Shown here: one piece after another, positions 328 to 5,155 of the stretch
How the letters are laid out: each line of letters starts with the position of its first letter
Numbering within the stretch: position 1 is the first letter of the stretch
Origin: a virus
Taxonomy: Duplodnaviria > Heunggongvirae > Uroviricota > Caudoviricetes
Reading direction: 5' to 3' (one strand)
Length of the DNA: 5,155 nt
Virus record (IMG/VR): IMGVR_UViG_2778261499_000005
Program-made: the position numbers and the translations under genes
The notes under the pieces: generated by a model
The model's database searches: none
The model's input: the letters and a program-made list of their open reading frames with translations, nothing else
What the model was told of the DNA's origin: nothing

Positions 328-1626
328 TTGTGCAAGGATTTCCCAGCGTTTACTGATCCTGAAAAATTAGATGGATTCATTAATCCAGAACAGTTTGGCG
401 TGTTTTTTCATGAGTGGATTCATTTTCTTCACAATATTTCCACAATTAATGGGTTTTCTATTTTTTGCACGCAAAACATCCTGTGGTCTAATTTTCGCTG
501 GGCAATGGACAATCAGGATGTATGTCTTGGTTCAAATGACATGGATCCAGCACATATCGAATCAAACAAAAATTTTCTCAGTTACATTCGTTCCAATAGG
601 AGTCTGCATAAATGTAACTTACCTTATTATGTAAAAGTAAACGACTTGTATTTTGAGGATGCAATAATCCATGACATGGAGGTTGCTGACGGTAGTGTTA
701 TATGTACATCATTAATAAAGTGTAGAATTTCTCATTCTGAAAACAAATACGATCTAGATTTAGGCGTGCTTGAAATACTTGAATCCGCAGCTTTTATGCT
801 TGAATGTAAGTGTATTAATGCGATGAATGGCTTCCCTCAAGAGGCACCCTTTTATCCGTATCATACTATCAAGGGCTTAGCAGCGAAAATTGCTCCGTCA
901 TTAAATGATGAAGATATTATTTGTTGTATGTTAGCTTCTTTGCAATCTAATAACCCTCCCCAAGTATTATTCAATCTACTACATAAATGTGAATTATTAC
1001 ATTCTGATTGTAGGTATGAACATCTAGTGGCGGAGGTGAAAAAACAATTAAGCGAACAAGATCAAATAATAAGCGAGTCACTTAATCAAATAATTCAAAT
1101 GATTCCTGTTGATGAACCGATGGGAAACTTTATCAAGCTTACTCTTAACAGAATAAGTAACAATTTGAACTATAGAAAGCAAAAACCGTTTTTTGAGTTA
1201 GATATAATAAAAAAAATAGCAGAAAAAACTGAGTTTATGAATGAAGTAATACAGAAATTCGGTGGTTGCACTATCATCCAGGTAAGACATGGAGATGATA
1301 ATGAACCACAGCGTGATATTATGTATGACTTTTGCTTACCTGAAAATAATGATTCAATTTTATTTGGTTCGAAAATGCTACGCGCTTGTTTTCACTTTAT
1401 ATTTATTCACTTTAAACTTTCTGGTGAAATCATGAAGACAGAAGAATTAAATATTTCGCCGCGTAATAAATGCCCATTTTATACTGTTTGCTGTGCATCA
1501 ATTCGAGCTAATAATAGTAATATCTGCGCTGAATCCCCTTGGAAATCAATGTCTATTGATGACAACAAAGGTTGTTATTATGCAGCAGCGATTAAAGCTA
1601 CTAACCCACCAGTTTTGCCGGATTAA
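328..1626 (+). CDS. Hypothetical 432-aa protein of unknown function; HEWIHFLH (HExxHxxH) at residues 28-35, about 20 Cys; candidate horizontally acquired prophage cargo
   Basis: 1299-nt uninterrupted frame in stop-rich, roughly 30% GC DNA. The start is uncertain: TTG at 328 has no SD, and an in-frame SD-led ATG at 283 is separated from the ORF by a single TAA at 313-315. No family recognised from memory. Confidence 0.8.
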   Translation: MCKDFPAFTDPEKLDGFINPEQFGVFFHEWIHFLHNISTINGFSIFCTQNILWSNFRWAMDNQDVCLGSNDMDPAHIESNKNFLSYIRSNRSLHKCNLPYYVKVNDLYFEDAIIHDMEVADGSVICTSLIKCRISHSENKYDLDLGVLEILESAAFMLECKCINAMNGFPQEAPFYPYHTIKGLAAKIAPSLNDEDIICCMLASLQSNNPPQVLFNLLHKCELLHSDCRYEHLVAEVKKQLSEQDQIISESLNQIIQMIPVDEPMGNFIKLTLNRISNNLNYRKQKPFFELDIIKKIAEKTEFMNEVIQKFGGCTIIQVRHGDDNEPQRDIMYDFCLPENNDSILFGSKMLRACFHFIFIHFKLSGEIMKTEELNISPRNKCPFYTVCCASIRANNSNICAESPWKSMSIDDNKGCYYAAAIKATNPPVLPD

Positions 1627-1871
1627 GAATAGTGTTCTATCTGATAAATATAAAATATTTAAGGTCAGGTCTGCTTATCGCTCAAAGCGGACTAGAAGGT
1701 TAGCTTGCGTCGGACTTGGCGTATTTAAAGAAGTGCTGGTGGTGACTGGTTGTTGTGTTCCATTTCTACAGAACAAAATCACAGAAACTATACCCAATAG
1801 TTATATTGAATCAATGATGAGACAGCCTCATATTTATCAGGACTGGTGTACGTCCAATACAGGAGGTTGTC

Positions 1872-1961
1872 GTGCTGGTTCTCAAATGTGCGCTAGCTAT
1901 TGCGGCTGTAATGGCAATTTATTGTCTTGCTGTTGTTCTTACGGATCGCCTTTCTGATTGA
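1872..1961 (+). CDS. Candidate small membrane peptide, 29 aa (MLVLKCALAIAAVMAIYCLAVVLTDRLSD)
   Basis: AGGAGG (1861-1866) lies 5 nt upstream of GTG 1872. The product is a single hydrophobic helix with a charged tail (TDRLSD); stop TGA at 1959-1961. Too short to appear in the ORF track; no homolog recalled. Confidence 0.3.
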   Translation: MLVLKCALAIAAVMAIYCLAVVLTDRLSD

Positions 1962-3396: not shown

Positions 3397-3686
3397 TGGT
3401 GAATTTACGTAAAGCGGCTAAAGGCCAGATGTGCCAGATCAGAATCCCTGGCTACTGCAATCACAATCCCGAAACCTCTGTGCTGGCGCATTACAGGCTG
3501 GCGGGGACGTGCGGAACAGCGACAAAACCACACGATATGCAGGCGGCGATAGCCTGTAGCTCATGCCACGATCTAATCGACGGGCGGGTAAAAACCAGCG
3601 ATTACACCAAAGAAGAATTGCGCCTGATGCATGCTGAAGGGGTTTTTCGCACACAAGAAATCTGGAGAAAGAAAGGTCATTTATGA
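3396..3686 (+). CDS. DUF1364 family prophage protein, 96 aa (YbcO-like)
   Basis: Translation MVNLRKAAKGQMCQIRIPGYCNHNPETSVLAH... resembles E. coli DLP12 YbcO (96 aa) in length, Cys pattern and the CQxRIPG motif. GGAG (3384-3387) lies 8 nt upstream; ATGA overlap with the Q start at 3683-3686. Confidence 0.85.
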   Translation: MVNLRKAAKGQMCQIRIPGYCNHNPETSVLAHYRLAGTCGTATKPHDMQAAIACSSCHDLIDGRVKTSDYTKEELRLMHAEGVFRTQEIWRKKGHL

Positions 3687-4225
3687 TTTACCCAACGAAT
3701 ACAGGAAAAAGCGGAGAACACCTTCGCCTCACCACGCTGGAAAGTGTCTGGATTCAGGGAAAACTACGTATGTGGGGGCGCTGGTCGTATATTGGCGGTG
3801 GCAGGTCAGGGAATATGTTCAATCAGTTGTTGGCATCCAAAAAACTGACGAAAACAGCCATTAATGAAGCCCTGCGCAGAATGAAAAAAGCGGGAATAGA
3901 GAAAGCTGAGCTGGAAGCGTTTTTGCGAGAGATGATCAACGGCAAGCAAAAGAGCTGGCTGGCGCATTGTACTGATGCAGAGGCGTTATGTATTGATCGA
4001 GTCATAAGTGAGGTGCTGGCAGAGCATCCAGGATTGATTTGCATTCTCCGGCAACGCTATGAAGGGCGGGGGATGACTAAGCGCAAAATGGCTGAATTGC
4101 TAAATGATGCACACCCAGAGTGGTGTTTTAGCACATGCGAAAAACGGATTGCTAATTGGTTAGCTGTTGCTGAGTATGCCCTATATATTCCCATGCGTGA
4201 ATCATTTGCTGAGAAAATGGCTTGA
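3683..4225 (+). CDS. Antitermination protein Q-like late-gene regulator, 180 aa
   Basis: Contains LRMWGRW, resembling the L-x-x-WG-x-W motif I recall in Q-family antiterminators such as QuuD. It is the last gene of the DUF1367-DUF1364 operon and is followed within about 80 nt by an intrinsic terminator. AAAGG (3672-3676) lies 6 nt upstream of ATG. Confidence 0.65.
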   Translation: MIYPTNTGKSGEHLRLTTLESVWIQGKLRMWGRWSYIGGGRSGNMFNQLLASKKLTKTAINEALRRMKKAGIEKAELEAFLREMINGKQKSWLAHCTDAEALCIDRVISEVLAEHPGLICILRQRYEGRGMTKRKMAELLNDAHPEWCFSTCEKRIANWLAVAEYALYIPMRESFAEKMA

Positions 4226-4303
4226 TTTCTTACGTATAAACTGCTTCAATTTTGCTATGCTTCGCAAAGCTGTATCGCGAGGCGGATTGCAGACATGGAC
4301 ATC
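4226..4303 (+). promoter_or_regulatory. Candidate Q-dependent late promoter and Q-utilisation region (position only; hexamers unresolved)
   Basis: Sits between the Q stop and the terminator, where lambdoid phages carry the late promoter and qut site. TATAAA at 4235-4240 is a possible -10, but no well-spaced -35 was found. Confidence 0.25.
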
Positions 4304-4305
4304 GT

Positions 4306-4332
4306 AAAAAAACCGCTTAATGCGGTTTTTTT
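4306..4332 (+). terminator. Symmetric, potentially bidirectional intrinsic terminator (tR-prime-like)
   Basis: aaaaaaa-ccgc-ttaat-gcgg-ttttttt: a 4-bp GC stem (4313-4316 / 4322-4325) with a 5-nt loop, flanked by a 7-A run (4306-4312) and a 7-T run (4326-4332) that extend the stem. Confidence 0.6.
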
Positions 4333-4369
4333 ACGTCAGGAAAGCAGGGGAGAATGCTGCTAGTTGGGC

Positions 4370-4408
4370 AACTGGTCTTTCTGCTCCAAATTATAACAGA
4401 GACCAGTT
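4370..4408. repeat. Perfect 9-bp inverted repeat, aactggtct (4370-4378) / agaccagtt (4400-4408), with a 21-nt spacer
   Basis: Exact reverse complements read from the sequence. An 8-T run follows at 4425-4432. Function unknown: RNA hairpin or protein-binding site. Confidence 0.5.
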
Positions 4409-4652
4409 ATAGTTTCGGTGCTGTGTTTTTTTTACAATATTGTGATAACACATTGCTGGCGGGAGTTTTGATATTTCTTGGCAGGGGCTGATGATGCGTT
4501 ATCCTGATGTCGTCAACTCATATAAAATGAGATGAGAGATCATTGCAGGGTGGTTTGTAATTCGCTGTTTAGCGGGACAATATGTTGTCTGATACAAGAC
4601 ACCCGACGCCTCAGATTACTATAATAAAGACGAAGCATCCTTTGTATTGACC

Positions 4653-4678
4653 AACCGCCTGTTTAGGCGGTTCTTTTT
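4653..4678 (+). terminator. Rho-independent terminator
   Basis: aaccgcc (4653-4659), loop tgttta, ggcggtt (4666-4672), then cTTTTT (4673-4678). The GC-rich 5-bp core is extended by two A-T pairs; only the plus strand has the trailing U-tract. Confidence 0.5.
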
Positions 4679-5029
4679 GGGCTGGTTTATTGTATGCCAA
4701 ATGATTATTAAAAAGGTTGTGTTAATAACAAAATCCGAAATAATATGCCTGCATATTTTTATCTTGCTTATATTCTGCATATTGTGCATAGCAGGCTCAT
4801 CCCTGCAATCAAAACTGTATGATGAGTATTTTTTGTTTTCCTTTTTTCCAGTCATCTGATGATGACCTGCTTCTTTTTAATCCGGATCGACATCAGTTTT
4901 TTAAGATAATTCCTGCGAGTTATATGCATAAATACCACAAACTCCGCATTTTATGTGGTTGGGAGTTGCCGGGCGCGCAGTGAGTTTGCTAAGAAAACTC
5001 CTGCATGGTGAATCCCCCTGTGCGGTGGG

Positions 5030-5068
5030 GTGATACCATTAACCTTTTCTGTCGCCGACAGGTATCAC
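5030..5068. repeat. Perfect 8-bp inverted repeat, gtgatacc (5030-5037) / ggtatcac (5061-5068), with a 23-nt spacer; candidate operator or RNA structure upstream of the gene starting at 5102
   Basis: Exact reverse complements read from the sequence; located 34 nt upstream of the SD-led ATG at 5102. Confidence 0.45.
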
Positions 5069-5101
5069 GAACATTTTGTTCACCGGGAGGCACCCGGCAC
5101 C

Positions 5102-5155
5102 ATGCACTTCAATAGATTCTCTCCACATTATGGATATTCTTTCAGAATATCCCAC
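5102..5155 (+). CDS. Possible 5' end of a gene running off the window (MHFNRFSPHYGYSFRISH...)
   Basis: GGGAGG (5085-5090) lies 11 nt upstream of ATG 5102; the frame stays open to the window edge. Only 18 codons are visible, so this is weak. Confidence 0.25.
   Translation, partial: MHFNRFSPHYGYSFRISH

Follow-up and report, generated by a model that had tools for sequence, protein, structure and literature searches.

A probable decayed copy of a tRNA-linked structured RNA module between the Q-like gene and the lysis genes of a Rac-type prophage

The DNA analyzed here, referred to as the window, is a stretch of 5,155 nucleotides (nt) from IMG/VR virus record IMGVR_UViG_2778261499_000005 and forms part of a Rac-type lambdoid prophage of E. 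coli. Downstream of its Q-like late antiterminator gene lies an interval (4334–4680) for which an original prediction, made from the letters of the window, had proposed a small RNA (sRNA) or small-protein locus, possibly an inserted or remnant element. Comparison with related prophages indicates, at a probability we put at roughly 0.75, that the interval is a decayed non-coding remnant of a moron composed of phage tRNAs plus a structured RNA, and that the 45-codon open reading frame within it (ORF45) is a chance product. A conserved structured-RNA module is present here in truncated and mutated form, consistent with the idea of a remnant element and with a non-coding sequence derived from an RNA gene.

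A tRNA-linked structured RNA family

The alignment to related prophages suggested in the original prediction revealed a decayed copy of an unannotated, tRNA-linked RNA module of ~385 nt. Homology runs lengthwise through the interval (~4326–4680) up to the module's terminator, the equivalent of 4653–4678, and is visible over the whole length in alignments A2, A3, A4 and A5. In a BLAST comparison, the window and the related locus L005 share 69% identity over 472 nt (E 7e-34). In E. coli genomes, 4386–4556 matches at 74–79% unannotated DNA lying just after tRNA-Gly behind other Q types.

Some form of the module is present in 861 of 5426 complete E. coli genomes, in up to 5 copies per genome (query: the ETEC1731 version), and a scan of IMG/VR found the module motif in at least 120 contigs. 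The module is also carried by Salmonella prophages with the same Q gene and tRNA pair, which were found via the Q protein and the covariance model R1 described below. A direct DNA search of the interval against sequenced phages matched only the first ~60 nt after Q, and the L005 version of the module matched only two phage records. Species-representative genomes scanned with the exact motif TTCGGGAGGCACCCGACRYYTC yielded only E. ruysiae and one doubtful metagenome-assembled genome, and a literature search gave no match to the module motif sequence.

The family sample comprised 117 places, which reduced to 79 distinct sequences and 26 clusters at 96% identity. A tRNA directly precedes the module in all 26 of these non-redundant phage and prophage variants, in the Q-to-lysis region. 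ARAGORN called it as tRNA-Gly(UCC) in 24 of 25 clusters, with an atypical 80-nt tRNA-Arg(UCU) in L110; the 26th cluster, L137, has the same tRNA 3' end according to the alignment. Upstream of the tRNA-Gly there is usually a tRNA-Thr, and in some cases further tRNAs called by ARAGORN as Met and Lys or Arg (the first being Ile in RefSeq). Measured from the tRNA 3' end to where the terminator T-run stops, a long form spans 368–396 nt and a short form 284–301 nt. About 65 nt before tRNA-Thr, a promoter-like sequence with AT-rich DNA upstream, TTGCGA-16-TATTAT, is conserved behind the leader terminator of relatives that have the same Q gene, suggesting that the phage tRNA pair and the RNA module form an autonomous unit with its own promoter and terminator. 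The form of this sequence across E. coli and Salmonella is TTG(C/A)(G/A)A-16-TAT(T/C)AT, examples being L011 2120–2170 and L140 about 3780–3830. The promoter assignments in this work, like the deletion junction discussed below, are deduced from sequence.

A consensus structure computed with RNAalifold on 23 sequences contains 68 pairs, with 96.0% of cells paired. It comprises, in order, the long-range helix P1 (GCACUG/CAGUGC), small hairpins, a U-run, the ~31-bp helix P2, P3 (a multi-hairpin domain closed by GAGGUG/CACCUC), an A/U-rich linker and the terminator. Changes on both sides were observed in 23 pairs, compared with 10.9 ± 2.2 in shuffles (0/500) and 5–12 when partners were slid. Within P2, for example, pair 162/228 occurs as AU in 12 and GC in 10 sequences, and pair 167/223 as GC in 14, AU in 5 and GU in 4. 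G·U cells outnumber A·C cells by 199 to 13, which places the constraint on the plus-strand RNA. The folding z-score is −6.25 for the intact module of L011 and −2.3 for the window copy. The 5' domain of the intact module (P1 and P2) spans ~215 nt and has no counterpart in Rfam, while the terminator, of the form ACCGCC-loop-GGCGG-T-run, is conserved in all 28 family variants, long and short forms alike. The short form (IMG/VR loci L037, L040, L043, L099, L105 and L137) keeps the tRNA linkage, P1, P2 and the terminator, and replaces the 3' domain by an unrelated ~60-nt segment.

In the long form this 3' domain resembles the prophage sRNAs STnc100 and PasD. Rfam gave full-length, sub-threshold STnc100 matches of 22.9–32.7 bits (gathering score 47) to the module 3' part in seven related loci; a scan of the interval 4334–4680 itself gave no STnc100 match at E ≤ 1 and nothing above threshold. 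R1, a covariance model of the module 3' domain, was built from 21 sequences with the window left out; its E-values are rough, the calibration having been shortened. It matched the window at 4528–4678 (49.9 bits, E 5e-12), the canonical STnc100 at 5000–5143 (30.9 bits, E 1e-6) and the Salmonella prophages with the same Q gene and tRNA pair (74–86 bits). Together, the Rfam and R1 matches argue that the module 3' domain is a diverged branch, and a distant relative, of STnc100/PasD.

PasD has been grouped with STnc100 by structure (2026 preprint, 10.64898/2026.05.13.724894). The module and these RNAs share a niche in lambdoid prophages, lying on the plus strand downstream of the late antiterminator Q and ahead of the lysis genes. 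Intact modules further share a closing helix around several hairpins (GAGGUG/CACCUC against GCAUGGUG/CACCAUGC) and, beside its 3' strand, a (C/U)CGGG-AGGCA-CCCG(G/A) hairpin followed by an A/U-rich linker and an intrinsic terminator. This GGGAGGCACCC-type hairpin beside the closing helix shows covariation in intact relatives. The module differs in its extra 5' domain and its tRNA-Gly(UCC) linkage, neither described for STnc100/PasD, and the window copy has lost the signature hairpin. PasA, PasB, PasC and PasD of enteropathogenic E. coli E2348/69 (both prophage regions) showed no BLAST-level sequence similarity to the module, and its identification with PasA–D was rejected, only PasD's general STnc100-like shape being in common.

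The window copy and its open reading frame

The features of the interval are as follows.

4334–4390, plus strand: poorly conserved 5' part of the module remnant, with a 15-nt lineage-specific insertion (4341–4355) and the 5' arm of a 9-bp repeat (4370–4378)
4391–4433, plus strand: TTATAAC/GTTATAG hairpin, orphan 3' strand of P1 (CGGTGCTG, 4416–4423) and U-run (4426–4433), from the alignment and the structure count
4431–4517, plus strand: P2, a long imperfect hairpin and the family's best-supported helix, with 26 of 31 pairs kept
4528–4652, plus strand: degenerate STnc100/PasD-like 3' domain matched by R1, with closing helix GAGAUG/CGCCUC, inner hairpins and A/U-rich linker
4596–4625, plus strand: sigma-70-like site AAGACA-18-TATAAT from the promoter scan (10/12), its −35 created by a 20-nt deletion
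4653–4680, plus strand: intrinsic terminator of the module, AACCGCCT-GTTT-AGGCGGTT plus CTTTTT with an 8-bp stem, from the scan, the inverted repeat and the alignments
4354–4491, plus strand: 45-codon ORF, probably fortuitous, not conserved and lacking protein homologues and family matches

The window forms 44 of the 68 consensus pairs, compared with 60–68 in relatives except L006 (51). Counted by helix, it keeps 0/8 pairs in P1, whose 5' partner GCACUG is missing, 0/3 in P1a, 1/4 in P3a, 0/2 in P3c, 5/6 in the closing helix and 6/6 in the terminator, and P2 contains five mismatches. The best-conserved hairpin of the family, UCGGG-AGGCA-CCCGA, has lost its 5' half to a 20-nt gap after 4595. 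ARAGORN found no tRNA in the window, from which the family promoter TTGCGA-16-TATTAT and the AT-rich DNA before tRNA-Thr are also absent.

All of the individual features named in the original prediction were recovered. Two plus-strand terminators do bracket the interval, at 4303–4335 by inverted repeat and at 4653–4672 by the terminator scan, in which terminator-like sites numbered 3, compared with 0.8 ± 0.9 in shuffles. The perfect 9-bp inverted repeat is present (4370–4378 AACTGGTCT / 4400–4408 AGACCAGTT); it is lineage-specific, the family's conserved hairpin at this place being TTATAAC/GTTATAG (4391–4397 / 4406–4412). The 8-T run exists one base to the right of where it had been placed, at 4426–4433 instead of 4425–4432. 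The ORF, predicted to run for 45 amino acids from ATG 4354 to TGA 4489–4491, does so, and its quoted sequence is exact.

A small-protein locus, the other half of the prediction, was not borne out by the comparisons. The ORF45 frame is kept in no homologue: the aligned segment measures 122–138 nt, lengths out of frame with each other, and most homologues have stops in all three frames, with ORFs at other positions and in other frames. Among 5.8 billion proteins searched, the only hits were 86–100% identical copies or fragments of the same locus, with no diverged homologue; Pfam, NCBIfam and PHROG gave no match, and tblastn against phages returned nothing. In the alignment, both the Shine-Dalgarno sequence (SD) and the ATG fall in the lineage-specific insertion. 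Alternatively, ORF45 could be a moron that encodes a genuine membrane peptide, small and hydrophobic, perhaps resembling type I toxins or modulating a holin. The 45 open codons with an ATG and a nearby GGGGAG, the hydrophobic product and the hok/sok type I system in the same prophage would all suit such a peptide. We nevertheless regard it as very improbable, in view of the unconserved frame, protein hits from the same locus only, three empty family libraries, a start inside the insertion and an SD-to-ATG spacing of only ~2 nt. The hydrophobic residues are those expected from a T-rich RNA-structure sequence that includes the T8 run.

Upstream leader and prophage setting

The flanking features on which the interpretation draws are listed below.

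3683–4225, plus strand: Q-like late antiterminator gene outside the interval, 180 amino acids (DUF1133 and weak Phage_antitermQ; Pfam PF06576 356 bits, PF06530 26 bits)
4222–4302, plus strand: conserved post-Q block, with promoter-like TTGATT(4222)-17-TTCAAT(4250) and leader GCTTCGCAAAGCTGTATCGCGAGGCG
4303–4335, no single strand: bidirectional intrinsic terminator (tR'-like) closing the short leader, a perfect 14-nt inverted repeat
4973–5155, plus strand: canonical STnc100 sRNA gene, cut by the window end (Rfam RF02076, 81.5 bits; gathering score 47)

Annotations in related phages name the product of 3683–4225 antitermination protein Q. Phages and prophages that share this Q gene are ~90% identical across the post-Q block, from the Q end to ~60 nt into the leader; beyond the leader hairpin and T-run, homology among these relatives ends. 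A promoter role for TTGATT-17-TTCAAT is putative, its −10 being non-canonical and the site absent from the promoter scan list, and the −10-like TATGCT at 4255–4260 might, speculatively, be a sigma-dependent pause element. The leader terminator consists of 14-nt arms at 4303–4316 and 4322–4335 (CGTAAAAAAACCGC / GCGGTTTTTTTACG). Since the repeat is perfect, the terminator is bidirectional, and because its A-tract pairs with its T-tract it was missed by the terminator scan. A hairpin and T-run occupy the equivalent position in every relative with the same Q gene, including Salmonella L140 and the E. coli relatives. By position, the post-Q block and its terminator are the counterpart, for the DUF1133 Q class, of the lambda pR'/6S and StxS leader. 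Like lambda 6S and StxS, which are short pR'-tR' leader RNAs, 4258–4332 lies directly after Q and ends in a terminator; the likeness concerns this flanking leader and not the interval, which lies downstream of its terminator. StxS is described as a by-product: pR' is constitutively active, and its transcription terminates during lysogeny (PMC7547250). Rfam-type searches found no sequence similarity between StxS and the leader, whose own promoter is putative.

The Q-to-lysis interval is a classic 'moron' site (Tree et al. 2014, PMC4104026). The cargo beyond the leader in relatives with the same Q gene consists of pertussis-like toxin genes (Rac-SA53), a hypothetical gene or tRNA genes. The earlier statement that the lysis cassette normally starts right after the Q-dependent terminator is thus too simple: relatives with this Q hold tRNAs, toxin or hypothetical genes there.

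Gene order in the window is hok/sok, DUF1367, YbcO, the DUF1133 Q-like antiterminator, the post-Q leader and terminator, the interval and canonical STnc100. One E. coli genome shows the order IS1, hokD, DUF1367, DUF1364, DUF1133, ~1.2 kb unannotated, tolA-like genes, essD-rrrD-Rz and trkG. Positions 4226–4760 were matched in 776 of 5426 complete E. coli genomes, the best ones at 100% identity, and no annotated feature underlies the interval among the E. coli matches listed. The prophage carries two STnc100-superfamily elements in tandem, ~300 nt apart, of which the one in the interval is decayed and the other intact. In E. coli ET5 (L007 1779–3052), an IS4-like ISVsa5 has replaced everything left of window position 4629; this locus keeps only the module terminator and the downstream region, pointing to further ongoing decay of the prophage.

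Elsewhere in the window, the hok/sok type I toxin-antitoxin locus is complete at 2004–2328 (sok, Rfam 116 bits, 2004–2178; mok/hokD ORF, 2116–2328). Within an island of 30–39% G+C content, a 432-amino-acid ORF (328–1626, plus strand) has a very strong match to PHROG phrog_15354, of unknown function, and no match in Pfam, NCBIfam or PADLOC. About 190 nt downstream lies a 47-amino-acid ORF (1815–1957, plus strand) with 9 cysteines (MMRQPHIYQDWCTSNTGGCRAGSQMCASYCGCNGNLLSCCCSYGSPF) and no family match. The two ORFs may be a moron pair upstream of hok/sok.

Proposed origin and competing readings

Some 3' external transcribed spacers (3'ETS) of tRNAs act as regulatory RNAs, as does 3'ETS-leuZ of the glyW-cysT-leuZ operon. 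The intact family RNA likewise starts at a tRNA 3' end and ends at the operon terminator, so that release by tRNA processing would be expected; the module differs in being much longer, highly structured and phage-borne, and the window copy has no tRNAs. In intact relatives, Q is followed by a short leader, taken to be constitutive and closed by its terminator; then come an AT-rich promoter-like region, tRNA-Thr, tRNA-Gly(UCC) and the ~385-nt module. Co-transcription of the tRNAs with the module would proceed in lysogens from a promoter belonging to the unit and, after induction, as part of the Q-modified late transcript, halting at the module terminator. Processing of the tRNAs would then free the trailer as a stable RNA, the 3' part of which may, by analogy, act like the Hfq-type prophage sRNAs STnc100 and PasD.

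In the window, a deletion or recombination event between the leader-terminator T-run and the early-module T-run would have removed the promoter region, both tRNAs and approximately the first 45–55 nt of the module. The T-run at 4326–4332 is probably the junction of the leader terminator with the module, whose homology resumes at window TTTTTTTACGTCAGGAAAGCAGG, matching family TTTTTTATTACGTGGGAGCAGG. The 15-nt insertion, the 20-nt deletion in the most conserved hairpin and the P2 mismatches would be later changes. The remnant lies directly behind a terminator and lacks the family promoter; it is most likely transcribed by read-through only, when Q-modified polymerase passes 4303–4335. The main surviving activity of the window copy is probably its terminator, which would be a further obstacle to transcription upstream of STnc100 and the lysis genes.

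Several points weigh against this account. For the family itself, we infer transcription, processing, Hfq binding and trans-acting function. The alignment is weak in 4334–4390, a stretch matched only by genomes at least 99% identical, and both the deletion junction and the '15-nt insertion' hinge on MAFFT choices. The window module is nearest to a lineage behind a different Q type (L005, 79%), which makes recombination rather than simple deletion possible; on the sequences compared, mosaic recombination and deletion between T-runs appear equally possible as origins. The interval is nearly clonal, being carried at 99% identity or more by 447 complete E. coli genomes. Recent common ancestry of a fixed, defective prophage is the likeliest reason, though the near-clonality may also mean retention for function. 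Finally, the deletion-created sigma-70-like site precedes the conserved 3' tail, and part of the remnant could be expressed alone.

The interval might instead act only in cis, its RNA functionless and its terminator serving as a second barrier behind the leader terminator, such that unmodified RNA polymerase does not reach STnc100 or the lysis genes and Q-modified polymerase passes. The lysis cassette is indeed separated from the Q gene by two plus-strand terminators in series; of the module's elements, only the terminator is kept intact in the window, and it is conserved even in the short-form variants with a replaced 3' domain. We consider this possible, if on balance unlikely: it leaves the strong family covariation in P1, P2 and P3 unexplained, and it describes a residual activity of the remnant rather than the identity of the element, being in that respect compatible with the remnant explanation. 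Another suggestion is that the remnant makes its own short sRNA of ~45–50 nt, from the predicted promoter at 4596–4625 with a start near 4632 to an end at 4653–4678. The predicted ~47-nt RNA would consist of the conserved 3' tail (UUGUAUUGACCAA), the terminator hairpin and a U-tail, as is typical of Hfq-dependent sRNAs. Its promoter agrees with the consensus at 10 of 12 positions and has an 18-nt spacer; few parts of the family are conserved as well as the tail ATTGACCAACCGCC...GGCGGTT; and Hfq-bound sRNAs of very small size (51–60 nt) have been found at this prophage position (Tree et al. 2014, PMC4104026). However, promoter-like sites are not enriched in the region (4, compared with 2.8 ± 1.5 in shuffles), the U-tail of the terminator is interrupted (CTTTTT), and the 4596–4625 promoter is absent from the family, whose members score 6–9/12 at inconsistent positions. 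The site is therefore not the ancestral way of expressing the RNA, and we find such an sRNA doubtful. A conserved internal promoter for the 3' tail was rejected, as the site is not conserved in the family.

The position of the locus also recalls the antQ-isrK-orf45-anrP region of Gifsy-1, where an sRNA gene after Q is followed by a 45-codon upstream ORF controlling an antirepressor. The putative leader start and the start of ORF45 are ~100 nt apart, a spacing also seen in Gifsy-1 (PMC4825925), and Rfam gave a weak isrK match at 4259–4332 (21.6 bits, E 0.17). This falls well short of the gathering score, 50, and most of the match lies on the terminator. The Gifsy-1 isrK region scores 79 bits for isrK, 69 for C4 and 48 for a1b1; C4 and a1b1 have no Rfam match in the window. 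Moreover, Gifsy-1 antQ is a phage-82-type Q and not DUF1133, Gifsy-1 orf45 (MVGRMGEPKGSP...) is hydrophilic and unrelated to ORF45, and no antirepressor gene lies downstream in the window. Salmonella relatives of the Q protein, scanned for isrK, contained none and carried the tRNA pair instead. Comparison with Gifsy-1 (NC_010392) refuted the homology, the Q, the RNA family and the ORF all being unrelated, and we give it almost no credence. Within Gifsy-1 itself (L143, 34131–34329, minus strand), the published isrK-orf45 region also contains a P1-type C4 antisense RNA (69 bits) and a1/b1 target sites (48 bits); at the sequence level, the isrK system looks like a c4-icd-ant-type immunity module.

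A more far-reaching proposal, which we advance tentatively and think unlikely to hold as a whole, is that lambdoid phages of E. coli and Salmonella carry, in the tRNA-linked module of ~385 nt, a structured RNA not described before. A tRNA operon and an STnc100/PasD-type RNA would there form one transcript that is separated by processing, with P2 possibly the processing signal, and the window remnant would have been re-activated by the 4596–4625 promoter.

For annotation purposes, no small-protein gene should be assigned to the interval, and the remnant explanation accounts for its odd position. The module from which it derives is covarying, widespread in E. coli and Salmonella prophages, unannotated in RefSeq and below the Rfam threshold, and with its 3' domain the STnc100/PasD group gains a third branch; a full description of the family is warranted. 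Should processing of the tRNA transcript yield the module, phages would provide a case of a regulatory RNA derived from a tRNA trailer, and the module would offer a way to study the origin, diversification and decay of prophage sRNAs in the Q-to-lysis 'moron' site.

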